In this document: piece by piece, positions 5,415-30,779 of the stretch
How the letters are laid out: every line of letters starts with the position of its first letter
Numbering within the stretch: the stretch's first letter is position 1
Assembly (NCBI RefSeq): GCF_016127575.1
Contig: NZ_CP066018.1
Location: 3,420,001 to 3,452,000, forward strand
Origin: Cupriavidus necator
Lineage (GTDB): Bacteria > Pseudomonadota > Gammaproteobacteria > Burkholderiales > Burkholderiaceae
Direction: 5' to 3'
Length of the DNA stretch: 32,000 nucleotides
Program-made: the position numbers and the translations under genes
The notes under the pieces: generated by a model
What the model was told of the DNA's origin: nothing
The model's database searches: none
What the model saw: the letters and a program-made list of their open reading frames with translations, nothing else

Positions 5415-5472
5415 AGTCAGGGCTGAGCCGGCCCTATAATCTCGCCTTCGGGCAAGCAAGGACTCAATCAAG

Positions 5473-7156: not shown

Positions 7157-7182
7157 GTCGGCTCCGGTAAGGATGTATGGCA

Positions 7183-7965: not shown

Positions 7966-7978
7966 GACGTGGGCTCCC

Positions 7979-8257
7979 TCAGCGGATCGATGAAGGATGC
8001 GGCGCCAGCGGCGTGACGGCGATCTTCATGTACGGGAACAGCGGCAGCCCCGACAGCAGCGTGTGCAGCGTCTCGTTGGACTCGACGTCGAACACGCTGT
8101 AGTTGGCATACTCGCCCACCACGCGATAGAGCTGCTGCCACTTGCCCTGGCGCTGCAGGTCCTGCGCATAGGCTTTCTCGCGCGCCTTGATGTCCTCCGC
8201 CTGCGCGGCGGGCATGTCGTGCGGCAGGCTTACGTCCATTCGTACCAGATACAGCAT
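7979..8257 (-). CDS. catC: Muconolactone delta-isomerase
   Basis: 92 aa, MLYLVRMDV...GKWQQLYRVVGEYANYSVFDVESNETLHTLLSGLPLFPYM. Size and sequence are characteristic of CatC. Confidence 0.92.
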   Translation of the reverse strand: MLYLVRMDVSLPHDMPAAQAEDIKAREKAYAQDLQRQGKWQQLYRVVGEYANYSVFDVESNETLHTLLSGLPLFPYMKIAVTPLAPHPSSIR

Positions 8258-8302
8258 TGGTGTCTCCTCGCTTCGATTCTGATGGGGTCTGATGGCAGGG
8301 AA

Positions 8303-9448
8303 TCAGGCGCGGTCGCGCCGGTAGTGGGCGAGCTTGTCCTCGTCCAGCGCCATGCCCAGGCCGGGGCCCTGCGGCAGGTGCAACGCGAAGTCGCGGTAGA
8401 CGGGGCGCTCGGCGACGATGTCGTCCTTCAGCAGCAGCGGGCCGAACAGTTCGGTGCCCCACGCCAGTTGCGGCAGGGTCGCAAAGCCGTGGGCGGCGGC
8501 AATGGTGCCGATGCTGCCTTCGAGCATGGTGCCGCCATACAGCGCGATGCCGGCCGCATCGCCCACCGCGGCCGTGCGCAGCATGCCGAAGATGCCGCCC
8601 GACTTGGCGATCTTCAGGGCGAACACGTCGGCGCCGCCGATGCGGGCCAGTTCCATCGCGTCCTCGGGCCCGCACACCGCTTCGTCGGCCATGATGGGCA
8701 CCACGAAACGCGCCGCCAGGCGCGCCAGCGCGGCGCGTTGCTCGCGTGGCGTGGGCTGCTCGATCAGGTCGATGCCGGCGGTCTCCAGCATGGCAATGCC
8801 GGTGGCGGCATCCGCTTCGTTCCAGGCCTGGTTGACGTCCACCGTGACACGGGCGCGCTCGCCCAGCGCGCGCTTGATCGCGGAAACGTGTGCGACGTCC
8901 TCGCGCACGCTGCGCCGGCCGATCTTGAGCTTGAAGGTATCGTGGCGGCGCTCGGCGAGCAGGCGCTCGGCCTCGTCGATGTCCCGCGCGGTGTCGCCGC
9001 TGGCGAGCGTCCACAGCACCGGCAGGGTGTCGCGCACGGCGCCGCCCAGCAGTGTCGCCAGCGGCACGCCGAGACGCTTGCCCTGCGCGTCCAGCAGTGC
9101 GGTCTCGAGCGCCGACTTGGCGAAGCGGTTACCGCGTGCGACCTTGCCGAGGCGCGCCATGGCGCCATGCACATTGGCCGCATCCTGGCCCAGCAGCGCC
9201 GGTGCAAGGTAGCTGTCGATGGTCAGCTTGATGCCCTCGGGGCTCTCGTCGCCGTAGGAAAGTCCACCGATGGTGGTCGCCTCGCCGAGGCCTTCGATGC
9301 CGTCGGCACAGCGCAGGCGGACGATCACCAGCGTCTGCCGCTGCATGGTCGCCATGGCGAGCTGATGCGGCCGGATGGTCGGAAGATCGACCAGGATGGC
9401 CTCGATGGACTCGATGGCCGTGATGCTTTGCTGCGTCGCCACTTTCAT
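8303..9448 (-). CDS. catB: Muconate cycloisomerase (enolase superfamily)
   Basis: 381 aa of the MLE/enolase-superfamily pattern (IVRLRCADGIEGLGEATTIGGLSYG, KLKIG, VDVNQAW, IEQP). It sits upstream of catC. Confidence 0.9.
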   Translation of the reverse strand: MKVATQQSITAIESIEAILVDLPTIRPHQLAMATMQRQTLVIVRLRCADGIEGLGEATTIGGLSYGDESPEGIKLTIDSYLAPALLGQDAANVHGAMARLGKVARGNRFAKSALETALLDAQGKRLGVPLATLLGGAVRDTLPVLWTLASGDTARDIDEAERLLAERRHDTFKLKIGRRSVREDVAHVSAIKRALGERARVTVDVNQAWNEADAATGIAMLETAGIDLIEQPTPREQRAALARLAARFVVPIMADEAVCGPEDAMELARIGGADVFALKIAKSGGIFGMLRTAAVGDAAGIALYGGTMLEGSIGTIAAAHGFATLPQLAWGTELFGPLLLKDDIVAERPVYRDFALHLPQGPGLGMALDEDKLAHYRRDRA

Positions 9449-9526
9449 ACCTTCCTGATGCAGTTGAACGTTGCACCGGAGTATGGAGGGCTATTTTTGG
9501 GGTGTCCAAGACCGTTGGCGTCTGAT

Positions 9527-9547
9527 TTCATACCTACAGAGTATGAA
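9527..9547. promoter_or_regulatory. LysR (CatR/BenM-type) recognition site TTCATAC-N7-GTATGAA in the catB promoter region
   Basis: ttcatacctacagagtatgaa was read directly. It is a perfect 7-bp inverted repeat containing ATAC-N7-GTAT, located 82-99 nt upstream of the catB ATG. Confidence 0.65.
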
Positions 9548-9561
9548 CCGCCCGTTGCGCC

Positions 9562-10479
9562 TTATTCCTTCGGCGGCGGCAGGTAGGCCATGCCCTCATC
9601 CTCGTAGAGCTGGTAGATCATGTCCCGCAGCGAGCGCAGGTCGGCCGACTCGTCCAGCATGCGCGTGCTCATGATAATGGGCGACACCAGCTTGGGATCG
9701 TCCAGTTCCTTGTAGGTCACGTCGCCCCGCTTGAGCCCGTAGACGCTGCTCGGGACCACCGAGATGCCTTCGCCCATCGCCACCAGCCCGAGCGCGATTT
9801 GCAGCTCGCGCACCTCGTGCAGGCGGCGCGGCTTCAGGGCGCGGTCGTGGAAGGCGGCCAGCACCTGGTCGGCAAAGCTCGGGCGCGGCGCCTTGGGGAA
9901 GATGATGAGCGGCTCGCCGACCAGGTCGTGCAGCGCGAGCTCGGGCTTGGCGTCAGCCAGCGGATGGCCGACCGGCAGCGCCACGATCATGCGCTCCTCA
10001 CGCAGCACCACGCGCCGCACCGACGGGTCTTCGTGGCGAATGCGCCCGAAGCCCACATCGATGCGCCCCTCCTTGAGCGCCTTGATCTGGTCCATGGTCG
10101 ACATCTCGTGCAGGCTCAGTTCGAGATCGGCGTGCATCTGCCGGAAGCGCCGGATGATCCGCGGCAGCATCCCATACAACGTGGAGCCGACAAAGCCGAC
10201 CGACATCTTGTGCTCGATCTTGCCGACCCGCTTGGTCATCGCCTGCAGTTCCGCGGTCTGGGCCAGCAGTTGCAGCGCGTGGGTATAGAAGAAGCGCCCG
10301 GTATCGGTCAGTTTCAGCGGGCGCGAGTGGCGCTCGAACAGTTGCACACCCAGGTCGTCCTCCAGTTGCTGGATCTGGCGCGACAGCGGCGGCTGTGCGA
10401 TATGCAGCCGCTCGGCCGCCCGGGTGAAGTTGCGTTCCTCTGCCACCGCCACGAAGTAACGCAGGTGCCGCAATTCCAA
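9562..10479 (-). CDS. LysR-family transcriptional regulator, CatR/BenM type
   Basis: The start is a TTG at 10479 (TTG GAA TTG CGG CAC CTG CGT = MELRHLRYF) with GGAGG 7 nt upstream. HTH region FTRAAERLHIAQPPLSRQIQQLE. 305 aa, divergent from catA-benABCD. Confidence 0.88.
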   Translation of the reverse strand: MELRHLRYFVAVAEERNFTRAAERLHIAQPPLSRQIQQLEDDLGVQLFERHSRPLKLTDTGRFFYTHALQLLAQTAELQAMTKRVGKIEHKMSVGFVGSTLYGMLPRIIRRFRQMHADLELSLHEMSTMDQIKALKEGRIDVGFGRIRHEDPSVRRVVLREERMIVALPVGHPLADAKPELALHDLVGEPLIIFPKAPRPSFADQVLAAFHDRALKPRRLHEVRELQIALGLVAMGEGISVVPSSVYGLKRGDVTYKELDDPKLVSPIIMSTRMLDESADLRSLRDMIYQLYEDEGMAYLPPPKE

Positions 10480-10483
10480 GACT

Positions 10484-10520
10484 ATACCTCCTGAGTATCG
10501 ATGGGATACTAAATCAGTGT
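10484..10520. promoter_or_regulatory. Tandem LysR sites in the divergent regulator/catA promoter region: ATAC-N7-GTAT (10484-10498) and ATAC-N7-GTGT (10506-10520)
   Basis: atacctcctgagtat and atactaaatcagtgt were read directly. The first overlaps the regulator's own Shine-Dalgarno sequence. The pair resembles the site 1 / site 2 arrangement described for BenM/CatM. Confidence 0.65.
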
Positions 10521-10625
10521 TGGACTGCCAAAACTGCCGTTGACTATGCTCCATCCGTGCCCGGAAGACAAGCTCGATACCTGCAAAGCATGAACCGGGA
10601 CCCAACCACAACTATGGAGACCCCC

Positions 10626-11549
10626 ATGACTCACTCGGAAATCGACGCCCTGGTCCACAGCTTTATCGTCGCCACCGGCACGCAAGGCACCCCCGACCCG
10701 CGCGTGCAGCAGGTGGTAGTCCGCCTGACCGCGGACCTGTTCAAGGCGATCGAGGACCTCGACCTGAGCGCCAGCGATGTCTGGAAGGGCATCGAGTACT
10801 TCGCCGAGGCGGGCGCCACCCAGGAGTTGGGCCTGCTCGCCGCCGGCCTGGGGCTGGAGCGATTCCTCGACGTCCGCGCCGACGAGGCCGAAGCCCGCGC
10901 CGGCCTGACCGGCGGCACGCCGCGCACCATCGAAGGCCCGCTCTACGTGGCCGGCGCCCCGGAAAGCACCGGCTTTGCCCGGCTCGATGATGGTAGCGAC
11001 GACGGCAAGGGCGAGGTCCTGTTCATGCAAGGCACGGTGTACGGCGCCGACGGCAAGCCGCTGCCCGGCGCCAGGGTCGAGGTGTGGCATGCCAACCTGA
11101 TGGGCAACTACTCGTTCTTCGACAAGACCCAGTCGCACTTCAACCTGCGCCGCACCATCGTCACCGATGCAAACGGCCGCTACCAGTTCCGCAGCAACGT
11201 GCCCAACGGCTACGGCTGCCCGCCGCAAGGCACCACCCAGCGCCTGCTGGACCAGCTTGCGCGCCACGGCCGGCGCCCGGCCCACATCCACTTCTTCGTG
11301 TCGGCGGACGGCCACCGCAAGCTGACCACGCAGATCAACATCGACGGCGACGAATACCTGTGGGACGACTTCGCCTTCGCCAGCCGCGAGGGGCTGGTGC
11401 CGGCGGTGACCCGCGTCACCGAAGCCGCCGCGCTCGACAAACACGGCGTGGACAAGCCGCTCGCCTCGATCGACTTCGATTTCCGGCTGCTGCCGGAGCA
11501 GGCCGGCGCCCCCGCCGCCGAGGTGGAGCGCCAGCGCGCCGCCGCCTGA
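10626..11549 (+). CDS. catA: Catechol 1,2-dioxygenase
   Basis: MTHSEIDALV..., an intradiol dioxygenase pattern (IEGPLYVAGAP, VWHANLMGNYSFFD, GRRPAHIHFFV). GGAGA lies 6 nt before the ATG at 10626, and the track ORF start at 10557 is rejected. Confidence 0.9.
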   Translation: MTHSEIDALVHSFIVATGTQGTPDPRVQQVVVRLTADLFKAIEDLDLSASDVWKGIEYFAEAGATQELGLLAAGLGLERFLDVRADEAEARAGLTGGTPRTIEGPLYVAGAPESTGFARLDDGSDDGKGEVLFMQGTVYGADGKPLPGARVEVWHANLMGNYSFFDKTQSHFNLRRTIVTDANGRYQFRSNVPNGYGCPPQGTTQRLLDQLARHGRRPAHIHFFVSADGHRKLTTQINIDGDEYLWDDFAFASREGLVPAVTRVTEAAALDKHGVDKPLASIDFDFRLLPEQAGAPAAEVERQRAAA

Positions 11550-11653
11550 TTTTCCGCAATGCCGCCCGCCGCGCGGGCCGGTAGATCCAGTCCGGGCGGC
11601 AGCGCCATGCGCAGCGCCGCCCCGGCGACAAGACATCGGCAGGAGACAACTCC

Positions 11654-13087
11654 ATGATCCCCATCTATCCGGAGGGCAAGGCCCCCGTTCGCCCCGGCGC
11701 AAAGCGCCTCGACCTGGATACCTTCCTGGTGGAAGACAAGGCAAGCGGCGACTACCGGCTGCACCGCGCGGCCTTCACTGACGAAGAGCTGTTCGAACTC
11801 GAGATGAAGCACATCTTCGAGGGCAACTGGATCTACCTGGCGCACGAAAGCCAGATCCCGAACAACAACGACTACTACACCACCCATATCGGCCGCCAGC
11901 CGGTGGTGATCGCGCGCAATCGCCAGGGCGAACTGAACGCCTTCATCAACGCGTGCAGCCACCGCGGCGCCATGCTGTGCCGCCACAAGCGCGGCAACAA
12001 AGCCACCTACACCTGCCCGTTCCACGGCTGGACCTTCAACAACAGCGGCAAGCTGCTGAAGGTGAAGGATCCCGAGAACGCCGGCTACCCTGACTGCTTC
12101 AACAAGGAAGGCTCGCACGACCTGAAGAAGGTGGCGCGCTTCGAGAACTACCGCGGCTTCCTGTTCGGCAGCCTGAACGCTGACGTGCCGCCGCTGAAGG
12201 ATTTCCTGGGCGAAGCGGCGCGCGTCATCGACATGATCGTCGACCAGTCGGCCGACGGGCTCGAGGTGCTGCGCGGCTCGTCCACCTACACGTTCGAGGG
12301 CAACTGGAAGCTGCAGGCCGAGAACGGCGCCGATGGCTACCACGTGTCGGCGGTGCACTGGAACTACGCCGCAACCACCAGCCAGCGCAAGCAGAAGAAC
12401 GCGCAGGAAGACAAGATCCGCGCCATGGACGCCGGCAAGTGGGGCCAGCAGGGCGGCGGCTTCTACGCCTTCGAGCATGGCCACATGCTGCTGTGGACGC
12501 GCTGGGCCAACCCGGAGGACCGCCCCAACTTCAGCCGCCGCGAGGAATTCGCCGAGCGTTGCGGCGCCGAGACCGCGGACTGGATGATCCAGAACTCTCG
12601 CAACCTGTGCCTTTATCCCAACGTCTACCTGATGGACCAGTTCGGCTCGCAGATCCGCCTGCTGCGTCCGCTGGCCGTCGACAAGACCGAGGTCACCATC
12701 TACTGCATCGCGCCGAAGGGAGAATCCGACGAGGCGCGCGCGCGCCGCATCCGCCAGTACGAGGACTTCTTCAACGTCAGCGGCATGGCCACCCCCGACG
12801 ACCTCGAGGAGTTCCGCGCTTGCCAGCAGGGCTACGCCGGGCAGGCACTGGCCTGGAACGACATGTGCCGCGGCGCGAAGCACTGGATCGACGGTGCCGA
12901 CGAGGCCGCGCAGCGCATCGGACTCAAGCCCGTGATGAGCGGGGTGCGCACCGAGGACGAGGGCCTCTACACGGTGCAGCACCGCTACTGGCTGGACGTG
13001 ATGAAGAAGGCCGTGGCAGAGCAATCCGCCGAAGCCGCGAATGAAGCCACCGACACCACCGACGCCGCCGCAGGGAGCGCAGCATGA
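11654..13087 (+). CDS. benA: Benzoate 1,2-dioxygenase large (alpha) subunit, Rieske oxygenase
   Basis: Rieske motif CSHRGAMLC...CPFHGWTF. 477 aa, followed by beta subunit, reductase and diol dehydrogenase genes. Confidence 0.9.
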
Positions 13088-13599
13088 GCACCGCCGACAT
13101 CACCCTCGACCAACCGGTCGACATGGCCGCCATCCAGTCCTTCCTGTACCGCGAGGCACGGCTGCTGGATGACGAAGAGTGGGACGCATGGCTTGCGTGC
13201 TACCACCCCGACGCAAAGTTCTGGATGCCCTGCTGGGATGACGACGGCAAGCTGATCACCGACCCGCAGCGCGAGATCTCGCTGATCTATTACCCGACCC
13301 GCCAGGGCCTGGAGGATCGCGTGTTCCGCATCAAGACCGAGCGCTCCAGCGCCACCATTCCGGACACGCGCACCAGCCACAACCTGAGCAACGTCGAAGT
13401 GCTCGGGGTGGCGGGCGACACCTGCACCGTGCGTTTCAACTGGCACACGCTGAGCCATCGCTACCAGACCACCTACAGCTACTTCGGCATGTCGCGCTAC
13501 ACGCTCGACCTCTCCGGCGCGCAGCCGCGCATCCTGGACAAGTATGTCGTGCTCAAGAACGACTACATCAACCAGGTCATCGACATCTATCACATCTGA
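13084..13599 (+). CDS. benB: Benzoate 1,2-dioxygenase small (beta) subunit
   Basis: 171 aa with the SnoaL-like ring-hydroxylating beta-subunit pattern ([18 protein letters not shown]). ATGA overlap with benA. Confidence 0.88.
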
Positions 13600-14640
<1,041 letters not shown>

Positions 14641-14657
14641 GCAAGGAGCACGACAAC

Positions 14658-15443
14658 ATGAGAACTGCTACACGCTTTGCCGGCAAAGCCATGATCGTGA
14701 CCGGGGCCGCGCAAGGCATCGGCCGCGGCGTCGCACAGGCCGCCGCCGCCGAGGGCGCCTCGGTGGTGCTGGTCGACCGATCGGCGCTGGTCGATGAAGT
14801 CGCGGCGCAGATCGTTGCTGCGGGCGGGCAGGCCATCGCAGTGCACGCCGACCTGGAGCGCTATGCCGGCGCCACGCAGATGGCGCAGGCGGCCGAAGCA
14901 GCCTTCGGCCGCATCGACATCCTCGTCAACAACGTGGGCGGCACGATCTGGGCCAAGCCCTTCCAGGCCTATGAGGAGGACCAGATCGAAGCCGAGATCC
15001 GGCGCTCGCTGTTCCCCACGCTGTGGTGCTGCCGCGCGGTGCTGCCCGGCATGGTCGCGCGCCGGCAGGGCGTCATCGTCAACGTGTCGTCGATTGCCAC
15101 GCGCAGCATCCACCGCGTGCCCTACGCGGCGGCCAAGGGCGGCGTCAACGCACTGACGGCCAGCCTCGCCTTCGAGCATGCGCACGAAGGCGTGCGCGTC
15201 AACGCCGTGGCCACCGGCGGCACCGAGGCGCCGCCGCGCAGGATTCCGCGCAACATGGCAGCGCAGAGCGAGCAGGAGGCCATCTGGTACCAGGCCATTG
15301 TCGACCAGACCAGGGCCTCGAGCCTGATGCACCGCTATGGCACGATCGACGAGCAGGTCCATGCCATCCTGTTTCTCGCCTCGGACGAGGCTTCGTACAT
15401 TACCGGCACGGTCTTGCCAGTTGGCGGCGGGGATCAGGGCTGA
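14658..15443 (+). CDS. benD: 1,6-dihydroxycyclohexa-2,4-diene-1-carboxylate dehydrogenase (SDR family)
   Basis: SDR motifs TGAAQGIGRG and YAAAKGG. AAGGAG lies 9 nt before the ATG at 14658. An alternative ATG at 14637 overlaps the benC stop (ATGA). Confidence 0.85.
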   Translation: MRTATRFAGKAMIVTGAAQGIGRGVAQAAAAEGASVVLVDRSALVDEVAAQIVAAGGQAIAVHADLERYAGATQMAQAAEAAFGRIDILVNNVGGTIWAKPFQAYEEDQIEAEIRRSLFPTLWCCRAVLPGMVARRQGVIVNVSSIATRSIHRVPYAAAKGGVNALTASLAFEHAHEGVRVNAVATGGTEAPPRRIPRNMAAQSEQEAIWYQAIVDQTRASSLMHRYGTIDEQVHAILFLASDEASYITGTVLPVGGGDQG

Positions 15444-15552
15444 TGAGCCAGCGTCTGGGTGGAATCGATTGGAGCGCAGTCCGACCGCCGAGGGACTGCA
15501 GCGTGTTGCATTGTTCGGCTTACAGCCTTCATTGGCAGATAGGAGTCAGATC

Positions 15553-16248
15553 ATGACCAAGCCCTCGATCATTCTGGCGCACGGTTTCTGGGGAGGTGCC
15601 GCGCATTGGGGAAAAGTCATCGTTGAACTGGCGCGAAAGGGGTATACGAACGTCCGCGCCGTTGAAATGCCGCTGACATCGCTTGCTGACGATGTCGAGC
15701 GTACCCGCAAGATGATTGCCCAGCAGAAGGGGCCGGTCCTCCTGGTGGGGCATTCGTACGGTGGTGCGGTGATTACCCAGGCGGGTGACCAGCCCAATGT
15801 GGTGGGGCTTGTGTATATCGCGTCGTTTGCGCCAGATGCGGGGGAGAGCCCCGGTGGCATTACGCATCAGCATCTTCCGGTTGCGGCGCCCAATCTCGAA
15901 CCCGACAGCGACGGCTACTTGTGGCTCAAATCCGATAAGTTCCATGAGAGCTTCTGCCAGGATCTTTCGCCCGACGACGCGCTGGTGATGGCGGTGACGC
16001 AGAAGGCGCCGCTTGCAAGCACCTTCGGCGACGTCATCACGACGCCGGCCTGGAAAAAGAAGCCGTCCTGGTACCAGATTTCCAGCGAAGACAGAATGAT
16101 CGCCCCCGAAAACCAACTGAAGATGTCGGCCCGGCTCAATCCCCGGAAGGTCGTGACTCTGGCGGCAAGCCATGCTTCGCTGGCTTCGAAGCCAGCCGAG
16201 GTTGCAGCGTTGATCGACGAAGCCGCGACGGAGTCGGTCAGGGGATAG
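15553..16248 (+). CDS. Alpha/beta-fold hydrolase of unknown specificity
   Basis: MTKPSIILAHGFWGG...LVGHSYGG (GxSxG elbow). AGGAG lies 7 nt before the ATG at 15553. The track ORF start at 15337 is an upstream extension. Confidence 0.75.
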   Translation: MTKPSIILAHGFWGGAAHWGKVIVELARKGYTNVRAVEMPLTSLADDVERTRKMIAQQKGPVLLVGHSYGGAVITQAGDQPNVVGLVYIASFAPDAGESPGGITHQHLPVAAPNLEPDSDGYLWLKSDKFHESFCQDLSPDDALVMAVTQKAPLASTFGDVITTPAWKKKPSWYQISSEDRMIAPENQLKMSARLNPRKVVTLAASHASLASKPAEVAALIDEAATESVRG

Positions 16249-16319: not shown

Positions 16320-17711
16320 CTACAGCATCGCTGAATGCAAGTGATGCGGATTATCGAGCGTTTCCGCGATGATCCGCAGCGACTCCTCGATCTCATCGCG
16401 CTCGCCCGGGCCGCCCAGGCAGACACGGATCGCATCGGGCGGGTTGCCGTCGGTCGAGAAGGCGGCGGCCGATACCGCGCCGATGCCGCGCGAGCGCAAG
16501 TGCAGCGCCAGTTCCGACGGGCTCCACGCTGAAGCCGCCGGGATCGGCAGCCACAGGTGAAAGCCCTCCGGGTCCGCGTCATAGGCCAGGCCCTCGAGCA
16601 CATGGCGCGCAATCAACTGCCGCGCCGCGCTTTCGGCGCGGATGGCCTTGAGCATGTCGTCCACCGTTCCGTCCTTGATCCAGGATGTAGCGAGCAATGT
16701 GTTGATGGGGCTCGCCATCACCGTCGTTGCCCGCAGGGTGCCAGCCAGGCGCTGCGCCTGCCGGGCGGTGGGGGCGTGCAGGAACGCTATGCGCAGCCCG
16801 GCGCCCAGGCATTTGGACAGGCCGGTGACGTAATACGTGAGTTCCGGGGCGAGCGCGGCAAACGTCTGTGGTGCCCGCAGCGGCAGCATGCCGTAGGCAT
16901 CATCCTCGATGATCGGCACGCTGTAGCGCAGCGCGACTTCGGCGAGCTGCTCGCGGCGTGCCTGCGGCATGGTGCGCGTGCTCGGGTTCTGGATGGTCGG
17001 ATTGCAATAGAGCGCCGCCGGCTTCTGTGTCTTGCACATGGCTTCGAAGGCGTGGGCGAACGGGCCATCCTCGTCGCCGGGCAGCGCCTGTAGCTGGATA
17101 TTGAGCTGCGCGGCGATGGCCTTGATGCCGGGGTAGGCCAGCGCGTCGGCACAGATGGTCTGCGCCGGCCGTGCGAGCTGCGACAGCAGTGCAACCAGCG
17201 CGCTGTGGATGCCGGGCGTGACCAGCACGGTGTCCGCGCTGCATGCCGGCACCCAGCGGCGCAGCCATTTCGCAGCAACCGAGCGATCGGCCGGGGTTCC
17301 GCCGAAGTCCTGGTAGCGCAGCAGCGTGTAGGGATCGGCAGCCTCCAGCAGTTGCGCCATGGCGGAACGAAGCCGCGCTGTCATCGCGGGCGGCTCCGGC
17401 GGCATGTTCATGGACATCTCCGCACCCGTGCCGCCGCGCAGCGGCATCGCGGGCGCACGTCCGCGCACGTAGGTGCCACTTCCTGTCTTGGTGTCGATCA
17501 ATCCCCGCTTCCTCGCTTCACTGTAGCCGCGCGCCACGGTGGTGTAGTTCAGTTGCAGCGCTTCGGCCAGGTCGCGCAGCGGCGGCAGCCGGTCGCGCGC
17601 GCGCAACTGGCCGTCGGCCAGTGCCTCCTCGATCAGGTCCGGAATCAGTAAATAGGCCGGCTTGGCACTGCCGGCGATACGTTTTACCCAATGGCTGGTC
17701 AGGTTGGACAC
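16320..17711 (-). CDS. MocR/GabR-type regulator: GntR winged-helix domain fused to a fold-type-I aminotransferase-like PLP domain
   Basis: N-terminal LPPLRDLAEALQLNYTTVARGYSEARKRGLI, and a C-terminal aminotransferase-like region with YVTGLSKCLGAGLRIAF (putative PLP lysine). The probable start is a GTG at 17711 with GGAGA 5 nt upstream. Confidence 0.8.
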   Translation of the reverse strand: MSNLTSHWVKRIAGSAKPAYLLIPDLIEEALADGQLRARDRLPPLRDLAEALQLNYTTVARGYSEARKRGLIDTKTGSGTYVRGRAPAMPLRGGTGAEMSMNMPPEPPAMTARLRSAMAQLLEAADPYTLLRYQDFGGTPADRSVAAKWLRRWVPACSADTVLVTPGIHSALVALLSQLARPAQTICADALAYPGIKAIAAQLNIQLQALPGDEDGPFAHAFEAMCKTQKPAALYCNPTIQNPSTRTMPQARREQLAEVALRYSVPIIEDDAYGMLPLRAPQTFAALAPELTYYVTGLSKCLGAGLRIAFLHAPTARQAQRLAGTLRATTVMASPINTLLATSWIKDGTVDDMLKAIRAESAARQLIARHVLEGLAYDADPEGFHLWLPIPAASAWSPSELALHLRSRGIGAVSAAAFSTDGNPPDAIRVCLGGPGERDEIEESLRIIAETLDNPHHLHSAML

Positions 17712-18021
17712 CGTGGTCTCCCGCTGCGCGATGCGATGGCATTCAGTGCCCTGAGGGTAGCACCCGAATGATCGCTTACCAAGCCGCACAAGCGATTGCA
17801 TCAGAAGTTCTCAATGATGGTGCGATATCAGCGCGGATGCACCACGCGTGCGCACCAGGCGGCTGGTTCCCGTTCAAAAATGTGCATTGTGGCGAAGCCG
17901 TCATGGCGTGCGCTGTGCGCCTTTGGTGGCATCCATGGCCAAAGCCGTTGCGATCATTGGGCCGATCATTTGGTCGGCTTCGGCTTGATTGGAGATTGAT
18001 CGCATGACTGCGGGCATTGCG

Positions 18022-18036
18022 TGGCACATCGGTTGC
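18022..18036 (+). promoter_or_regulatory. Sigma-54 (RpoN) -24/-12 promoter TGGCAC-N5-TTGC upstream of the Nit1C-type operon
   Basis: tggcacatcggttgc was read directly. The match to the GG-N10-GC core, with flanking consensus bases, is exact. It lies 90 nt upstream of the first ATG (18126) in the correct orientation. Confidence 0.7.
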
Positions 18037-18125
18037 GGATGTTGGCGTGTTCGGCCTGGCGCCGAACGGTCGATCGGCAAGGGATCGGTCGGCCGCACTG
18101 CCCCATCAACGCAACGGAGAGAAGC

Positions 18126-18608
18126 ATGCCTGCTGTCAGCAAACCGGCCCACAAGAAGGGCGATTTCCTGGTCGACTATGAAGAGAAGGTATTCGAGGAC
18201 GTAAAGGCCGAAGCCGGCGAGAAGGCGCTGGTGACCTTCCACACCGTCGCCTTCGAAGGCTCGATCGGCTTCGTCAACATGCTGCAGGCCACGCGCCTGC
18301 TGCGCAAGGGCTTCGAGACCTCGATCCTGCTGTACGGCCCCGGCGTGAACCTTGGCGTTCAGCGCGGCTTCCCGACGCTTGGCGACGAGGCATTCCCCGG
18401 GCATATGAACTTCAACAAGCAGCTCACCAAGTTCATGGACGAGGGCGGCAAGGTCTACGCCTGCCGCTTCGCCCTGCAGGCCCTGTACGGCCACGGCGAG
18501 GCCTCGCTGATCGAGGGCATCCGCCCGATCAATCCGCTCGATGTGCTCGACCTCAAGCTGCTGCACCGCAAGGAGAACGCGCTGATCATCGATACCTGGA
18601 CGGTCTGA
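18126..18608 (+). CDS. Small conserved protein, first gene of Nit1C-type clusters (MSMEG_0572/Sll0783-like; NitB in Pseudomonas nomenclature)
   Basis: [23 protein letters not shown]..., 160 aa. GGAGAG lies upstream of the ATG at 18126. The assignment rests on position and on remembered family resemblance. Confidence 0.65.
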
Positions 18609-18628
18609 GCGAAAGGGCAGGTGCCACC

Positions 18629-19645
18629 ATGTCACAGAAACGCATTGTGCGCGCGGCCGCGGTCCAGATCGCGCCCGACCTCGAGAGCGGCGCAGGCACG
18701 CTGGCCAAGGTCTGCGAGGCGATCGACGAGGCCGCCGGGAAAGGCGTGCAGCTGATCGTGTTCCCGGAGACCTTCGTGCCGTACTACCCGTACTTCTCCT
18801 TCGTACGGCCGCCGGTGCACTCCGGCAGCGACCACATGCGGCTGTACGAGCAGGCCGTGGTGGTGCCCGGCCCGGTCACCGATGCCGTCGCCGGGCGCGC
18901 ACGCCGGCACGGCATGGTCGTGGTGCTCGGCGTGAACGAGCGCGACCACGGCAGCCTGTACAACACGCAGCTTATCTTCGACACCGAGGGCAACCTCGCG
19001 GTCAAGCGCCGCAAGATCACGCCCACCTTCCACGAACGGATGATCTGGGGGCAGGGCGATGCGGCCGGCCTGAAGGTCGCGGACACCGCGATCGGCCGCG
19101 TCGGCGCGCTGGCGTGCTGGGAGCACTACAACCCGCTGGCCCGCTATGCGCTGATGACCCAGCACGAGGAAATCCACTGCAGCCAGTTCCCGGGCTCGCT
19201 GGTCGGGCCGATCTTTGCCGAGCAGATCGAAGTCACGATCCGGCATCACGCGCTGGAATCCGGCTGCTTCGTCGTCAACGCCACCGGCTGGCTGACCGAA
19301 GCGCAGATCGCCTCCGTGACCACCGATCCGGCGCTGCAGAAGGCGCTGCGCGGCGGCTGCAACACTGCAATCATCTCGCCGGAGGGCCAGCACCTGGCGC
19401 CGCCGTTGCGCGAGGGCGAGGGCATGGTCATTGCCGACCTCGACATGTCGCTCATCACCAAGCGCAAGCGCATGATGGATTCGGTGGGCCACTACGCGCG
19501 CCCGGAACTGCTAAGCCTTGCCATCAATGAGCGGCCGGCGGCGACGGCAGTGCCGATGGCAGGCGCCTTCTCCAACTTCCATGGGAGTATCCGCGATGAC
19601 ATCCAGCGCGAGCGTGCCGGCTTCGAGCCGGCAATTGATGACTGA
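18629..19645 (+). CDS. Nitrilase (carbon-nitrogen hydrolase superfamily, Nit1C/Nit6803 type)
   Basis: Glu-Lys-Cys triad contexts [19 protein letters not shown] and [11 protein letters not shown]. 338 aa. Confidence 0.9.
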
Positions 19646-20741
19646 ACTGCAGTCCGTCGGGCTGCGCCTGGAAGACCCGAATGCCGGCGCGGCCAGCCGG
19701 CGCGGCGGGGCGGGTCCGTCCGATCACAAGGCGGTCACCATCGACGGCGTGACCATCATGGTGCCGGTGCATACCAGTACCGCGTGGCACTCGCCGTTCG
19801 TGGCGCATTCGCCCGACGGAACGGGGCGCAGCGCGCTGATGCGCGGCACCATCCCGATTGCCAGCATCAGCTTTCCGAAGGCGCCGCGTTTCCATGCGCT
19901 GCAGACCCTGGAGGGCATCCCGTACTCGCATATCGCCACGCTGCATGGCGCCGATGTGCTGGCCACCACGGTGCTGCAGACTTGCATCCGCTACGAGAGC
20001 CGCAAAAAGACCTGCAAGTTCTGCTCGATCGGCCAGTCGCTGGCGGCGGGCCGCACGATCGCGCGCAAGACGCCGGAGCAACTGGCCGAAGTGGCGCGCG
20101 CCGCAGTGCTGCTCGACGGCGTCAGGCATATGGTGCTGACCACCGGCACGCCGCCGACGCCGGACCGGGGCGCGGCTATTCTTTGCGAGAGCGCCTTCGC
20201 CATCAAGGCCGCGGTCGACCTGCCGATCCAGGCGCAGTGCGAGCCGCCCGACGACGACCGCTGGTTTGAGCGCATGAAGGCCGCCGGCATCGACACGCTC
20301 GGCATGCACCTCGAGGTCGTCACGCCGGCGCTGCGCGAGCGCATCATGCCGGGCAAGGCGGGGGTGCCTCCGAGCCGCTACATGGAAGCCTTCAAGGCCG
20401 CCGTTGCGGTGTTCGGCAGGGCGCAGGTCAGCACGTACATCCTCGCGGGACTCGGCGACACCGCGGAAGCCATCCTGTCGATCTCGCGCGAGCTGATCGA
20501 GCTCGGGGTGTATCCGTTCGTGGTGCCTTTCGTGCCGATCTCCGGCACGCCGCTGGAGGACCACCCGGCACCCTCGCCGGCCTTCATGCAGTCGATCCTG
20601 CAGCCGCTCGGCGCCATGCTGAGCGCCGCCGGCATGCGCTCGTCCGACATCAAGGCAGGTTGCGGCAAGTGCGGCGCGTGCTCGTCACTGGCCACCTACG
20701 AGCGCGAGGCGGCACTGGCGACCGACGGAGCGACATCATGA
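19596..20741 (+). CDS. Radical SAM-type protein (MSMEG_0568-like; NitD)
   Basis: Cys cluster C-x9-C-x2-C ([18 protein letters not shown]) plus C-terminal CGKCGAC. The ATG at 19596 has GGGAG upstream and overlaps the nitrilase by 50 nt. An alternative ATG at 19638 overlaps the nitrilase stop by 8 nt. Confidence 0.75.
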
Positions 20742-21292
20742 AAAGCGATCTCTGCGTCGAGGTGCCGGGCATCCCGATGTTCCGCATCCGCTGGGCGGAG
20801 CACACCTGGGAGGCGGAGCAGGCCTATCGCCTGCGCCAGGCCGTGTTCTGCGAGGAGCAGGGCATCTTTGCGGGCGACGACCGGGACGCGGTGGACGACG
20901 TGGCGCAACTGCTGGTGGCGGTGCGCTTCGAGCCGGAATTGCCCCGCCATCCCGGCACCGTGGTCGGCACGGTTCGCATCCATGAAAGCGAGCCGGGCGT
21001 GTGGTTCGGCTCGCGGCTTGCGGTGGATGCGGCATACCGAAGCCAGGGCAAGATCGGTGCGACGCTGATCCGCCTGGCGGTGAGCAGCGCCCACGCGATC
21101 GGCTGCCGGCGCTTCCTTGCGCACGTGCAGAGCCAGAACGTGCCCTTGTTCAGGCGCTTGCATTGGCACGTCCTGGCAGAGGAGACGCTGCTCGGGCGGC
21201 CTCACCACCTGATGCAGGCAGACCTGAACCATTACCCACCTTGTCATACGCCGCACGCGGGCCTGATTGCGGAAGGCAGGGCCGTGCGATGA
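20738..21292 (+). CDS. GNAT-family N-acetyltransferase (MSMEG_0567/Sll0786-like; NitE)
   Basis: ATGA overlap with the upstream stop. Contains the acetyl-CoA-binding-like segment RLAVDAAYRSQGKIGATL. 184 aa. Confidence 0.75.
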   Translation: MKSDLCVEVPGIPMFRIRWAEHTWEAEQAYRLRQAVFCEEQGIFAGDDRDAVDDVAQLLVAVRFEPELPRHPGTVVGTVRIHESEPGVWFGSRLAVDAAYRSQGKIGATLIRLAVSSAHAIGCRRFLAHVQSQNVPLFRRLHWHVLAEETLLGRPHHLMQADLNHYPPCHTPHAGLIAEGRAVR

Positions 21293-22284
21293 GCCTCGAC
21301 GACCTCGTACACACCTTGCGCAGCAGCCGGGGTTTTGCGCATAAGACCGATATCCCGGCCATGCTGTCGCCACTCGGCGCCGCGGCCACCGGACGCAACG
21401 CGGCCATGGCTGTCGATGTCGGCGACGACTGCGCGGCATGGCGGGATGGCGACGGCTACCTGCTGTTCGCCATTGAAGGACTGGTCAGTGATTTCATCCG
21501 CACGATGCCGTGGTTCGCCGGCTACAGCGCGGTCATGGTCAACATCAGCGATATCTATGCGATGGGCGGCAGGCCGACGGCCGTGGTCGATGCGCTATGG
21601 AGCCATGGCGCCGCCGACGCCGCTGAAGTGCTCAAGGGCATGGCAGCGGCGTCTGCCGCTTATGGCGTGCCGATCGTCGGCGGTCACAGCAACGCGCGCA
21701 GCGAGGAAAGCCAGCTTGCCGTGGCGATCGTTGGCCGGGCGCGCAAGCTGCTGTCGAGTTTCGCGGCGCGTCCCGGGCAGCGCCTGTTGATGGCGGTGGA
21801 CCTGCGCGGCGCGTTCGCGGAGCCGTACCCGTTCTGGAACGCATCGACGGGCGCGCCGGGCGAACGACTGCGCGCGGATCTCGAACTCTTGCCGGTGCTG
21901 GCCGAAGACGGCCTTTGCACCGCGGCCAAGGACATCAGCATGGCGGGTGCGCTCGGCACCGCGCTGATGCTGCTCGAATGCTCCGGGGTGGGCGCCAGCA
22001 TCGCGCTGGAGCGCATTCCGCGGCCCGATGGCGTGCCGCTGGAGCGATGGCTGACCGCATTCCCCAGCTATGGCTTCCTGCTGGCCGTCAATGACGACGA
22101 TGCGCAGGCGGTCGAACGCCGCTTCCTCGATCGCGGCATTGCCTGCGCCCAGATCGGCGCCATCGACGATTCCCGTGTCGCCACGCTCACGCACGCCGGC
22201 GAACGGGCCACGTTGTGGGACTTCCGCGAGGCAGGGTTCATCCTGCCGACGCGCCTGGCCACGCCGATCGATTCCCCAACCTGA
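21289..22284 (+). CDS. AIR-synthase-like (PurM/ThiL/HypE superfamily) ATP-dependent enzyme (Sll0787-like; NitF)
   Basis: ATGA overlap with the GNAT stop. N-terminal AVDVGDDCAA and NISDIYAMGG motifs are typical of the PurM-like superfamily. 331 aa. Confidence 0.78.
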   Translation: MSLDDLVHTLRSSRGFAHKTDIPAMLSPLGAAATGRNAAMAVDVGDDCAAWRDGDGYLLFAIEGLVSDFIRTMPWFAGYSAVMVNISDIYAMGGRPTAVVDALWSHGAADAAEVLKGMAAASAAYGVPIVGGHSNARSEESQLAVAIVGRARKLLSSFAARPGQRLLMAVDLRGAFAEPYPFWNASTGAPGERLRADLELLPVLAEDGLCTAAKDISMAGALGTALMLLECSGVGASIALERIPRPDGVPLERWLTAFPSYGFLLAVNDDDAQAVERRFLDRGIACAQIGAIDDSRVATLTHAGERATLWDFREAGFILPTRLATPIDSPT

Positions 22285-22292
22285 GACCTGCC

Positions 22293-22580
22293 ATGCCAGT
22301 TACCTATTTCCGCATCCGCTGGCCTGACCAGACCGAGATGGCCTGCTATTCCCCATCCTCCATCGTCACGGAGCACTTTGCCGAAGGGGCGGCGTATCCG
22401 CTGGACGAGTTCGTCGAGCGCGCGCGTACCGCGCTGGGCGCCGCTTCCGAGCGGGTGCGTGCCAGGTATGGCTACGCCTGCTCGTCCGCGATGGACCAGC
22501 TCCGCATCCTGGAAATCGCCGCGCAGCGGTTCCGGGGCCAGGACGGCGCCACCGTCCGGTTTCTCGGCTTTGGCAGCTAG
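22293..22580 (+). CDS. Small conserved protein of Nit1C-type clusters (MSMEG_0570-like; NitG)
   Basis: MPVTYFRIRWPDQTEMACYSPSSIV..., 95 aa, 8 nt after the upstream stop. The assignment rests on position and remembered family resemblance. Confidence 0.6.
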   Translation: MPVTYFRIRWPDQTEMACYSPSSIVTEHFAEGAAYPLDEFVERARTALGAASERVRARYGYACSSAMDQLRILEIAAQRFRGQDGATVRFLGFGS

Positions 22581-22615
22581 CCGTTCTTCAAATTCCTCGC
22601 CTTAAAGGATCCAAC

Positions 22616-23902
22616 ATGTCCAACGTCATCTACACCAATCCGGACCAGGCCGCAGAACCCAGGCACTACGGCGTCATCATTGTCGGCGGCGGCCAGGCCG
22701 GACTATCGATGAGCTACTTCCTGAAGCAGGCCGGCATCGATCATCTCATCATCGAGAAGCACACCGTCACGCATACCTGGCGCACGCAACGCTGGGATGC
22801 GTTCTGCCTGGTGACGCCGAACTGGCAATGCGCGCTGCCGGGCTATCCCTACCAGGGTGATGATCCGCACGGCTTCATGAAGAAGGATGAGATCACGGCC
22901 TATCTCGATGGCTTTATCCGGACGGTCGGCGCACCGGTGCTCGAGCACACCGAGGTACGGCAAGTGAAGGCGCGCGCTCAGGGGGGATTTGCCGTGGTGA
23001 CGAGCCAGGGTGCATTCACCGCAGACCAGGTGGTGGTGGCCTCGGGCGGTTATCACACGCCGATCGTGCCGCGCATGGCCGAGCGCCTGCCGGCGTCGGT
23101 CCGGCAGCTGCAATCGTCCGAATACAGGAATCCCGAGTCGCTGCCCGAGGGTGCGGTGCTCGTGGTTGGCTCGGGCCAGTCGGGCGCGCAGATTGCGGAA
23201 GACCTGCACCTGGCCGGCCGCAAGGTGTACCTGGCCGTCGGCGAGGCGCCGCGCTGCGCGCGCTTCTATCGCGGGCGGGACGTCGTGGACTGGCTCGCGG
23301 ACATGAAATACTACGACCTGCCGGTCACCGAGCATCCGCTGCGCGAGGGCGTTCGCGACAACACCAATCACTATGTCACCGGCCGCGACGGCGGGCGCGA
23401 TATCGACCTGCGCAGGTTTGCCACTGAGGGCATGGAGCTCTACGGCTTGCTCGACGACTACCTCGAAGGCCAACTGCGTTTTGCGCCGGACCTGCGTCGC
23501 AACCTGGACGATGCCGATGCGACTTACAACCGCATCAACGCGAGCATCGACAAGTTCATCGCGGAGCGAGGTATCGAGGCGTCGCCGCCGAGCGTCTATG
23601 AGCCCGTGTGGACGCCGCCGGCCGAGCGCACCGAACTTGATCCTCAGGCAGCCGGCATTGGTTCGATCATCTGGTGCATCGGCTTCCGGCCGGACTTCAG
23701 CTGGCTCGAAGTGCCGGTGTTCAACGGCCGCGGCTATCCGGGCCACGAACGTGGCGTGACCGCGCACGCCGGCCTGTACTTCCTTGGCCTGCCCTGGCTG
23801 CACACGTGGGGATCGGGGCGATTCTCCGGCATCGCGCGCGACGCCGAGTACCTGGCCGCCCTGATCGCCGCAGGCCGGGGCGACACCGCGCTGGCCGCCT
23901 GA
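22616..23902 (+). CDS. FAD/NAD(P)-dependent oxidoreductase, flavin-monooxygenase-like (MSMEG_0569-like; NitH)
   Basis: Two dinucleotide-binding motifs, VIIVGGGQAGLS and VLVVGSGQSGAQIA. 428 aa. Confidence 0.85.
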   Translation: MSNVIYTNPDQAAEPRHYGVIIVGGGQAGLSMSYFLKQAGIDHLIIEKHTVTHTWRTQRWDAFCLVTPNWQCALPGYPYQGDDPHGFMKKDEITAYLDGFIRTVGAPVLEHTEVRQVKARAQGGFAVVTSQGAFTADQVVVASGGYHTPIVPRMAERLPASVRQLQSSEYRNPESLPEGAVLVVGSGQSGAQIAEDLHLAGRKVYLAVGEAPRCARFYRGRDVVDWLADMKYYDLPVTEHPLREGVRDNTNHYVTGRDGGRDIDLRRFATEGMELYGLLDDYLEGQLRFAPDLRRNLDDADATYNRINASIDKFIAERGIEASPPSVYEPVWTPPAERTELDPQAAGIGSIIWCIGFRPDFSWLEVPVFNGRGYPGHERGVTAHAGLYFLGLPWLHTWGSGRFSGIARDAEYLAALIAAGRGDTALAA

Positions 23903-23903
23903 C

Positions 23904-24736
23904 ATGGAAGCCGTCGTCTCGCGCCATGTGGCCGGCATGCCCCAGTTGGCATACACCGGCCTGTCAGAGAACTGGCTGCTGAAGACCTGCGGCGACCTGC
24001 ACTGGCGCCTGCTGGCCGCCGGCGCCGGCCTGGGGGTGCCGGACTTCCGCGATGCCGAGGGCAATCCGGTGTATGCGGCGTTCACCGCGATCCGCGTGCG
24101 CGACGCCGCGCCGCAAACGGTCGGCGAGCACGCCGGGTTCAGCATCGGTTCGCACATCGTGCCAGCGGGTGGCGTGAAGCACCTCAGCGAACATGCGGTC
24201 GACATGCATGGGGACTGCCGCGCCAGCGTGACGATGCTGTCCACCTTCATCCGCCGCACGCGTGACCGGGACAACCGCTCGGTCGTGCGCACCATGCCGA
24301 CCGTGGCCGCGCAGTGGGCCGGCGCCGGCCCGTCGGCACAGGCGGCGGAACTGTCGCTGCTGGCACGGCGTTTTCGCGGCGGGGATTGGGGCATGCATCT
24401 CGGGCTCGATCAGGCCCGGCATCGCGTCTGCCACGCCGCCGAGTACCTGCCGTGCCCCTGCAACGACTTCAATGGCGCCGACCTGCTGTACTTCGCCAGC
24501 TTCCAGGCCATGGTCGATCGCGCGGAATGGCAATGGCGCCGCGACGCGGATCCGCCCACGGTGTTCGCGCGGGACCTGTTCTTCCATGGCAACGTCAATG
24601 TCGGCGAGTCGCTGGAGCTGATCTTCTCCGCGCTGCGCGAGGACGAGGAAGGATTGACGCACTGGTGTGAGATCCGGCGCAGCCGCGACGGCGAGAAGAT
24701 CGCAGATGTGGTCACGCAGAAGCGGTGGAGGCAACG

Positions 24737-24740
<4 letters not shown>
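23904..24740 (+). CDS. Double hot-dog-fold protein, LnmK / Pnap_2097-like (tentative)
   Basis: Starts 1 nt after the flavoprotein stop. Two hotdog-like halves each open with a helix-type motif (GLSENWLLKTCGDLHWRLL and DFNGADLLYFASFQAMVDRAEWQW). The family name is from memory. Confidence 0.5.
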
Positions 24741-26815
<2,075 letters not shown>

Positions 26816-28063: not shown

Positions 28064-28075
28064 GGGTGCCATCTC

Positions 28076-29613: not shown

Positions 29614-29672
29614 GGCGGGGCGTCTCCGTGTCAGCCGCGGTCAGGGATGCGCAAATGTACGGCGCGCCACGG

Positions 29673-30758: not shown

Positions 30759-30779
30759 GATGCGCTCCGTCGTCGGGGG

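Follow-up and report, generated by a model that had tools for sequence, protein, structure and literature searches.

The element at positions 18022-18036 of the 32-kb stretch of Cupriavidus necator DNA analysed here (the window) is, as judged from sequence comparison, very probably a real sigma-54 promoter of a nitrogen-starvation gene cluster, the Nit1C operon. An earlier note on this DNA had recognized the motif and had read it as a nitrogen-controlled promoter served by an activator encoded elsewhere. The observation was confirmed and that reading gained support; the main addition made here is a conserved, predicted operator for the MocR-type regulator encoded divergently from the operon. 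Three elements were found to be kept across genera: the promoter, MocR-type boxes at fixed spacing from it and, still farther upstream, a group of NtrC-like dyads. Since the MocR boxes adjoin the promoter and the NtrC-like sites lie upstream, two signals are probably in control. We favour, with moderate confidence, a reading in which nitBCDEFGH would be transcribed from a sigma-54 promoter with trans-encoded NtrC as the ATPase, and MocR would gate or shape the DNA loop according to a metabolite.

The promoter core and the elements that accompany it are the following:

18022-18036, plus strand: sigma-54 promoter core TGGCACatcggTTGC (15-mer TGGCACATCGGTTGC), an exact match to TGGCAC-N5-TTGC
18022-18027, plus strand: -24 element TGGCAC
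18033-18036, plus strand: -12 element TTGC
18116-18121, plus strand: Shine-Dalgarno sequence GGAGAG of nitB

As the earlier note had stated, the match to TGGCAC-N5-TTGC is exact, and neither strand of the 32-kb window turned out to have another exact match. On average, 0.09 exact matches were obtained per dinucleotide shuffle of the window, with at least one in 9 of 100 shuffles. When one mismatch was allowed, six matches were obtained in the window against 3.4 expected, so that only the exact match stands out. In TGGCACatcggTTGC, GG at -24 and GC at -12 are separated by exactly 10 nt, and the only departure from the extended consensus TGGCAC-N5-TTGCW, a minor one, is the G (instead of A or T) that follows TTGC. 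The motif had been placed 90 nt upstream of the first gene; its upstream position and its orientation held, while the distance had to be corrected, given that nitB starts at the ATG at 18126 and not at 18127, so that 89 nt separate that ATG from the C of TTGC. The transcription start is predicted at about 18047-18049. A promoter scan of the intergenic region (17650-18200) revealed no sigma-70-like promoter and no -35/-10 candidate. An Rfam scan of 17600-18300 returned only a sub-threshold chance match, indicating that no riboswitch or leader RNA is present there, and the predicted fold of the 5' UTR (18047-18135) was not more stable than those of shuffled sequences (z = -0.36). A small hairpin in this predicted 5' UTR was kept within Cupriavidus only. 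The IHF consensus WATCAANNNNTTR, read by eye, had no match in 17900-17985.

The operon downstream of the promoter comprises:

18126-23902, plus strand: Nit1C operon nitB-H, seven NCBIfam equivalogs above their cutoffs
18126-18608, plus strand: nitB
18629-19645, plus strand: nitC
ending at 20741, plus strand: nitD
ending at 21292, plus strand: nitE
ending at 22284, plus strand: nitF
ending at 22580, plus strand: nitG
22616-23902, plus strand: nitH

The seven genes matched NCBIfam models TIGR04044, 04048, 04043, 04045, 04049, 04042 and 04046, all above cutoff, and the set is complete: an MSMEG_0572 family protein, an Nit6803 nitrilase, a radical SAM protein, a GNAT protein, an AIR-synthase-like protein, an MSMEG_0570 family protein and a flavin oxidoreductase. 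The genes after nitH code for a Pnap_2097/LnmK-like protein and a methylmalonyl-CoA mutase, and the NitB of the window shares 99% identity with its counterpart in Cupriavidus necator A5-1. Nit1C is among the most widely transferred nitrogen-starvation clusters and occurs in cyanobacteria, mycobacteria, many proteobacteria and on virulence plasmids of Klebsiella pneumoniae. Nitrogen control of the cluster family, on which the earlier note had relied, is documented for two regulators: NtcA binds at sll0783 in the homologous cyanobacterial cluster, and in mycobacteria the MSMEG_0565-0572 operon shows GlnR-dependent induction of more than 500-fold. A literature search by the locus tags of the C. 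necator, P. xenovorans and P. phymatum clusters returned nothing.

Conservation of the promoter was analysed in 82 loci, namely 80 loci of NitB relatives from species genomes, the Klebsiella plasmid pK2044, and the window. The core TGGCAY-N6-TGC was matched at 9/9 positions in 80 of the 82 loci, an invariance that is partly built in because the best-scoring site was taken for each locus; the core precedes the nitB ATG by 56-116 nt (median 85 nt), in the orientation seen in the window, and the loci that carry it belong to beta-, gamma- and some alpha-proteobacteria. A 9/9 match is expected by chance in about 0.1% of 170-nt stretches. The flanks also follow the sigma-54 consensus, with C or T after TGGCA, then A or G, and a T before TGC in 45 of 64 non-redundant loci chosen for having little shared upstream sequence. 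Moreover, the NitA-type clusters of an Acinetobacter plasmid and of a Photorhabdus chromosome, in which the divergent gene codes for a true sigma-54 activator, have TGGCACagctcTCGCA at the same place before nitB. The presence of the same promoter in 80 of the 82 loci and in the NitA-type clusters indicated a conserved sigma-54 promoter and not a fortuitous match. About 9% of shuffled 32-kb windows hold one exact match, and a motif without function might be imagined on that account; nevertheless, its position and orientation are kept in 80 of 82 loci from three proteobacterial classes, by which the chance reading is effectively refuted, and we give it practically no weight.

The earlier note had also claimed that no gene for an enhancer-binding protein (EBP) lies nearby, and this held for the entire 32-kb window. 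The EBP signatures GAFTGA and GESGTGKE were not found in any of its six reading frames, and the same search pattern, used as a control, detected both in real NitA. Pfam scans of 30 window ORFs revealed benzoate/catechol genes, TetR, LysR and other proteins, and in none of them a Sigma54_activat domain. GAFRGA matches in the window were considered as degenerate EBP motifs and rejected, since they were not in ORFs with AAA+ domains. In Pseudomonas, as the earlier note correctly stated, the cluster is preceded by nitA, the divergent gene of a sigma-54 regulator (PMC11049912). When NitA was queried against plasmids, the matches beyond Acinetobacter were CynF-like regulators located beside nitrate/cyanate-type ABC transporters, not beside Nit1C. 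The window has no adjacent NitA of the Pseudomonas type; a MocR gene stands in that place, and its Pfam and NCBIfam domains agree with the previous description of the only adjacent regulator as a MocR/GabR-type protein that is not an AAA+ EBP. The sigma-54 holoenzyme requires an AAA+ EBP, and since MocR has no AAA+ domain and the window contains no EBP gene, an EBP encoded elsewhere is required, as had been argued. The C. necator genome presumably carries both ntrC and rpoN.

The regulator gene that faces the operon is:

16320-17711, minus strand: mocR, coding for a MocR/GabR-type PLP-dependent regulator, EhuR/EnuR-like, with Pfam domains GntR and Aminotran_1_2

Its product contains an N-terminal GntR helix-turn-helix domain (PF00392) and a class I/II aminotransferase domain (PF00155), and keeps an SK motif that aligns with the PLP-lysine motif SK of MppQ. 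Translation of mocR likely starts at the GTG at 17711, which follows a GGGAGA; a longer ORF beginning with an ATG at 17801 is possible, and the added stretch is not conserved. The best named match was NCBIfam EhuR (NF052286), with 394 bits against a cutoff of 480. Identity with the ectoine regulator EhuR/EnuR was rejected on that score and because the target is Nit1C and not ectoine genes. About 70 of the 80 loci, with representatives of the beta-, gamma- and alpha-proteobacteria, encode a MocR homolog divergently from nitB at a distance of 290-490 nt. The MocR of the window is an ortholog of H16_A1958, of the group "YrdX". Suvorova and Rodionov (2016; PMC5320631) placed H16_A1958 of Ralstonia eutropha H16 in that group, with this operon as its regulon, and described the target operon as PF02635-COG388-COG2516-COG3153-COG2144-COG2072 in Burkholderia, Comamonadaceae, Ralstonia and Rhizobiales; the available text and supplement contain no link of this regulon to sigma-54 or NtrC. 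On the evidence of the compared loci, MocR is a conserved partner of the cluster and no bystander, which constitutes the main omission of the earlier note.

Putative MocR boxes were located in the window as follows:

17985-17992, plus strand: putative box TTGATTGG, first of a direct pair
17996-18005, plus strand: putative box TTGATCGCAT, second of the direct pair
17949-17956, minus strand: putative inverted box TGATCGCA, an exact octamer match, kept in 11 Cupriavidus species
17962-17968, minus strand: putative inverted box TGATCGG, kept in 11 Cupriavidus species (alignment A1)
18016-18021, plus strand: ATTGCG beside the -24 element, a weak remnant of a third box
17769-17775, plus strand: TGATCGC near mocR, conserved in alignment A1
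17794-17801, plus strand: GATTGCAT near mocR, conserved in alignment A1

A tandem direct repeat, TGATYG-N5-TGATYGCAT, was found at fixed offsets from TGGCA in 72 of the 82 loci (which were anchored on TGGCA), the two boxes lying about 36-37 and 25-26 nt upstream of it. In the window, the direct boxes TTGATTGG and TTGATCGCAT (17985-18005) form an 11-bp repeat at about -62 to -43 from the predicted start, and together with the inverted boxes they build an array in which two boxes pointing backward are followed by two pointing forward. Other genera have a third box at the -24 element, in the form ATTGA-N-TGGCAC or CCGATCA-N-TGGCAC; an inverted box abuts TGGCA in 14 loci, and TTGA stands directly upstream of TGGCA in 19. 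Over the 450 nt preceding nitB, the density of the octamer TGATYGCA was 80 times that in the remainder of the loci. Similar boxes adjoin mocR where this gene is separated from nitB, and those at 17769-17801 of the window, about 60-90 nt upstream of the mocR start, probably serve mocR autoregulation. The Agrobacterium pAt locus keeps MocR and its ATTGTATG boxes without a sigma-54 motif, and the NitA-type loci of Acinetobacter and Photorhabdus have the sigma-54 promoter without MocR boxes; by this distribution, the boxes follow MocR rather than sigma-54. In layout, the arrays of the loci correspond to the commonest operator type of MocR proteins, which has two boxes in direct and one in inverted orientation (PMC5320631), and the half-site of the boxes resembles ATTGT, the half-site of the EnuR operator (PMC8739950). 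In Methylophilus, the whole module is duplicated before an intervening gene.

At the targets of GabR, PdxR and TauR, the sigma-70 holoenzyme is activated by a MocR-type regulator alone, and the same could be proposed for nitB, with TGGCA and TTGC as further MocR-like boxes that mimic a sigma-54 promoter. Several features speak for it: TTGATGGCA resembles TTGATYGCA, the spacing of 11 bp between the -24 and -12 elements is also that of the boxes, the -24 element is embedded in TTGATGGCAT in several loci, and Agrobacterium runs the cluster without a sigma-54 motif. However, the G after the T in TGGCA was present in all 64 non-redundant loci (80 of 82 overall), at a position where the upstream boxes have C or T; TGGCAC-N5-TCGCA also occurs in clusters that have an adjacent EBP and no MocR; and the intergenic region offers no -35/-10 candidate. 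We consequently regard transcription by sigma-70 and MocR alone as highly improbable, and retain the sigma-54 promoter.

The candidate enhancer consists of the following elements, for which no strand is assigned:

17838-17854: NtrC-like 17-bp dyad TGCACCAcgcgTGCGCA, 10/12 to TGCACC-N5-GGTGCA, centre at about -202
17808-17824: weaker NtrC-like dyad TTCTCAatgaTGGTGCG, 8/12, centre at about -232, 30 bp from the first
17883-17887: GTGCA half-site, possible third activator site, kept in 6 of 11 Cupriavidus sequences

The earlier note had pointed to three hexamers, TGGTGC at 17818-17823 and GCACCA at 17839-17844 and 17852-17857, all of which were found at those positions; by themselves they are weak evidence, because GCACCA has 53 copies in the G+C-rich window. 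Its statement that these half-sites are not in the canonical 17-bp dyad had to be revised: the second hexamer lies within the canonically spaced dyad 17838-17854 (10/12) and the first is the right half of the weaker one (8/12), while the third is not conserved in Cupriavidus. The dyad 17838-17854 is one of only two sites of at least 10/12 in the 32-kb window. Its left half, TGCACC, is nearly invariant in Cupriavidus, and it has positional counterparts at -183/-185 in Paraburkholderia and Caballeronia. The right half of the weaker dyad, ATGATGGTGCG (17814-17824), is invariant in Cupriavidus; alternatively, it may be a MocR box for mocR autoregulation, spaced by two turns of the helix with respect to those at 17769 and 17794. 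One of the compared loci (L006) has a 9/12 dyad at the offset equivalent to the GTGCA half-site.

The compared loci were scored with the published NtrC consensus, TGCACCA-N3-TGGTGCA (PMC8743547), over the region from -300 to -40 relative to the promoter. In the 64 non-redundant upstream regions, 84 sites of at least 9/12 were found, against 11.2 +/- 3.9 in dinucleotide shuffles, and 23 of at least 10/12 against 1.2 +/- 1.0; compared with the rest of the same loci, dyad density was 7.6-fold and 25.6-fold higher, respectively. The dyads prefer offsets of about -140, -150, -172, -183, -194 and -215, in steps of 10.5-11 bp (Rayleigh R 0.65-0.70), although both the enrichment and the phasing statistics overstate independence, with inflated p-values, because the compared loci share ancestry. 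The dyads are often paired, 31-33 bp apart across loci, in the same manner as the sites at glnAp2. The window has two such sites, centred at about -202 and -232, roughly three helical turns apart, more than about 100 bp upstream and on the correct face of the helix. Orthologous loci carry fuller dyads than the 10/12 and 8/12 of the window, examples being CGCACCcggctGGTGCG in Paraburkholderia, TGCACCgataaGGTGCC in Thalassolituus and TGCAATcaaatGGTGCA in a further locus (L038), and the Klebsiella plasmid pK2044 has three NtrC-like sites. By the same consensus scoring, no NtrC-like dyads were found in the NitA-type loci or in the Agrobacterium locus. The sites of the window itself fall short of the full consensus, and 9/12 sites turn up about once per kb in this G+C-rich DNA. 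No NtrC motif for Burkholderia is given in the paper on B. cenocepacia NtrC. Taken as indirect support, the enrichment and helical phasing of dyads in MocR-type loci and their absence from NitA-type loci are consistent with NtrC as the candidate activator, as had been suggested.

The sigma-54 promoter might instead be served by some other unlinked EBP, either NitA/CynF-like or another Cupriavidus EBP, in which case the GCAC dyads would be sites of that EBP or of the mocR promoter. The imperfect NtrC sites of the window would fit such a situation, and there is precedent for it: P. fluorescens NCIMB 11764 has its nitA away from nitB (PMC11049912), which shows that the EBP can be displaced from the cluster, and the nearest relatives of NitA control operons for cyanate-type transport, so that this EBP family moves between nitrogen-scavenging loci. 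On the other hand, the NitA-type enhancer palindrome TTATGAAATTTCATAA is absent here, neither the 14 kb downstream of nitH nor the 18 kb upstream revealed an EBP gene, and the conserved dyads have the 17-bp geometry and half-site of NtrC in many genera, including Klebsiella, where the NtrC consensus is experimentally founded. An activator other than NtrC is therefore held to be unlikely.

It could also be that the two assignments are swapped, the TGATYGCA boxes being the enhancer of an unlinked EBP and the GCAC dyads being bound by MocR near its own gene. The invariant ATGATGGTGCG and TGCACC sites are indeed nearer to mocR, and the boxes lie upstream of the sigma-54 promoter, forming in Cupriavidus a symmetric array of four. 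Several observations make this exchange very unlikely: Agrobacterium keeps boxes and MocR without sigma-54 promoter or dyads, boxes adjoin mocR where this gene is apart from nitB, their layout and EnuR-like half-sites fit the operators of the MocR family, and the distance of the boxes from the promoter, at -62 to -43, is shorter than is usual for EBP sites.

With NtrC assigned to the dyads and MocR to the boxes, control of nitBCDEFGH could proceed as follows. A closed complex of the sigma-54 holoenzyme would form at the 18022-18036 promoter. Under nitrogen limitation, phosphorylated NtrC, encoded elsewhere, would assemble on the dyads at about 17808-17890 (roughly -200 to -230) and would loop to the promoter to drive its opening at the expense of ATP. 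The PLP-dependent MocR, encoded divergently, would bind the array 17949-18005 (about -98 to -43), between enhancer and promoter, a place usually occupied by IHF at sigma-54 promoters; in other genera, the MocR boxes come right up to the upstream border of the sigma-54 footprint. Bound between enhancer and promoter, MocR might tie looping or the binding of the holoenzyme to a PLP-reactive amine or amino-acid ligand specific to the pathway, and the promoter would respond both to general nitrogen status, signalled by NtrC, and to a specific metabolite, sensed by MocR. Unliganded MocR might either block the promoter, as EnuR does, or assist in the manner of ArgR at astC, through a bend in the DNA. 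A stronger version, possible but in our view doubtful, is that MocR is an obligatory ligand-controlled second factor at this sigma-54 promoter in beta- and gamma-proteobacteria, taking the architectural place of IHF. If so, the closed complex would be remodelled only in the presence of a specific amine or amino acid, and the cluster would possess a naturally occurring enhancer with two inputs, for which Borrelia rpoS with BosR plus Rrp2 is a counterpart. That MocR activates the sigma-54 holoenzyme without any AAA+ partner is extremely improbable.

Several known systems share parts of this arrangement. The Nit1C cluster with NitA of Pseudomonas oleovorans (pseudoalcaligenes) CECT 5344 has the same seven genes, nitB-H, as the window, and the NitA-type clusters of Acinetobacter and Photorhabdus have a sigma-54 promoter before nitB as the window does. 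They differ in the regulator, the window having a divergent MocR-type gene instead of NitA, and in the enhancers, which are NtrC-like dyads and MocR boxes in the window and AT-rich NitA palindromes in the NitA-type clusters. The "YrdX" regulon shares the regulator ortholog group and target operon (PMC5320631). The closest named relative of the window MocR is EnuR/EhuR, the repressor of ectoine catabolism, whose operator has a similar ATTGT half-site and adjoins the core promoter as the window boxes do; EnuR, however, acts on a sigma-70 promoter of ectoine genes, and the target of the window MocR is Nit1C.

As regards the joint action of two regulators, the astCADBE promoter of E. coli and Salmonella depends on NtrC and sigma-54, with ArgR as an accessory protein that helps without being essential, and NodD at nodA and BosR at rpoS are further parallels (PMC3037356). 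Both astCADBE and, as proposed here, the window would combine a nitrogen-regulated sigma-54 promoter with a metabolite-sensing DNA-binding protein; the accessory protein is ArgR in the former and a MocR-family PLP protein in the latter. At the nac promoter of Klebsiella aerogenes and in synthetic sigma-54 enhancers, proteins bound within the loop between the NtrC sites and the promoter modulate output according to helical phase in a "quenching-like" manner, and such enhancers tolerate insertions or deletions of 10-11 bp (PMC4740811), a tolerance that matches the 10.5-11 bp steps of the dyad offsets across the compared loci. These cases of loop repression involve Nac, TetR, LacI or TraR, whereas the protein in the window is MocR, and the literature examined describes no natural example of loop modulation by a MocR protein. 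To our knowledge, MocR-family proteins have been studied so far only at sigma-70 promoters, and the arrangement, if true, would be a natural case of a MocR regulator working on a sigma-54 enhancer.

A sigma-54 promoter is in itself ordinary, and the MocR-Nit1C regulon was already predicted in 2016 (PMC5320631). What appears to be new is the conserved combination of MocR, sigma-54 and NtrC-like sites, of which no description was found in the literature searched; judging from the loci compared, in most proteobacterial versions of Nit1C a sigma-54 promoter seems to be joined by NtrC-like sites and by a PLP-sensing regulator specific to the cluster. This combination offers two handles on the cluster: switching it on would take nitrogen limitation together with the MocR ligand, and the compound bound by MocR is likely a substrate or intermediate of the pathway and would thus provide a route to the metabolite of the cluster.

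The longest open reading frame of mocR, the divergent gene coding for a MocR/GabR-type regulator, begins at an ATG at window position 17801, and the start that is conserved, a GTG at 17711, is preceded by the ribosome-binding site GGGAGA. The 90 nt by which the longer frame exceeds it (17712-17801) are unconserved and contain non-triplet indels between Cupriavidus species, and this same segment carries candidate operator boxes. In most non-Cupriavidus loci (e.g., L020, L030, and the Klebsiella plasmid locus L081, at 4841-4851), an A/T tract (AAAAAATTTTT) is conserved approximately 60-70 nt upstream of TGGCA, the -24 anchor of the sigma-54 core, being flanked by the NtrC-like dyads on one side and by the MocR boxes on the other. 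This tract may bend the DNA intrinsically or bind a nucleoid protein. Two inverted MocR boxes occupy its position in Cupriavidus. On the other side of the promoter, a small hairpin (GTTCGGC-ctggc-GCCGAAC, window 18049-18067) opens the predicted nit transcript and is kept within Cupriavidus as GTCGGCC...GGCCGA; the entire 5' UTR showed no structure above that of shuffled sequences.

Variants of this regulatory module were found in other genera. In Methylophilus sp. QUAN (locus L054), the entire module is duplicated, the second copy (4340-4405), consisting of an A-tract, tandem TGATTGCA boxes and TGGCATggctgTTGCT, lying ahead of a gene for a 407-aa protein located between mocR and nitB; locus L062 is similar. 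The 407-aa product had no match in Pfam. Since this gene is preceded by a module of its own, the regulon in Methylophilaceae seems to reach past nitB-H. The MocR-type Nit1C cluster of the Agrobacterium tumefaciens Ach5 plasmid pAt (L083) contains ATTGTATG/CATACAAT boxes, and neither a sigma-54 motif nor NtrC-like dyads were found in its region 4720-5000. On this plasmid, MocR appears to act alone, and the promoter is presumably of the sigma-70 type. In Massilia (loci L056, L071, L079, and L080), the boxes (ATTGTATG or ATTGACTG) are similar to those of pAt, and the sigma-54 core is retained.

The nitH gene is immediately followed by two further genes, and the remainder of the window contains an aromatic-degradation block upstream of the Nit1C cluster and a gene run on the opposite strand:

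532-16248: aromatic-degradation block, also including acyl-CoA genes and a TetR regulator gene
8303-9448: muconate cycloisomerase
9562-10611: LysR regulator
10557-11549: catechol dioxygenase
11654-14640: benzoate-type Rieske dioxygenase alpha and beta subunits and reductase
14637-15443: dehydrogenase
23904-26815: Pnap_2097/LnmK-family acyltransferase-decarboxylase, then fused methylmalonyl-CoA mutase
27008-31997 (-): opposite-strand run, the first gene (27008-28072) coding for a DUF4438 protein

The LnmK-like gene of the window scores 373 bits against TIGR04099. In many loci of Cupriavidus and Paraburkholderia, nitH is likewise followed by such a gene, and therefore the nit operon may extend past its seven classical genes. 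The four ORFs after the DUF4438 gene (288-405 aa) had no Pfam match at E <= 1e-5.

Beyond Acinetobacter and Photorhabdus, the nearest relatives of the activator NitA (40-48% identity) are encoded on Methylobacterium, Bosea, and Rhodobacteraceae plasmids (L084, L085, and L086), divergently from operons for CmpA/NrtA-type ABC transporters, one of them followed by cyanase. This neighborhood suggests that NitA is a member of a CynF-like family of enhancer-binding proteins. The whole Nit1C cluster is also present on pK2044, the virulence plasmid of K. pneumoniae NTUH-K2044 (L081, record 150659-158110), where it is accompanied by the divergent MocR gene, tandem boxes, a predicted sigma-54 promoter, and three NtrC-like dyads. 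Plasmid records with a NitB match numbered 374 for Klebsiella and 30 for Escherichia.
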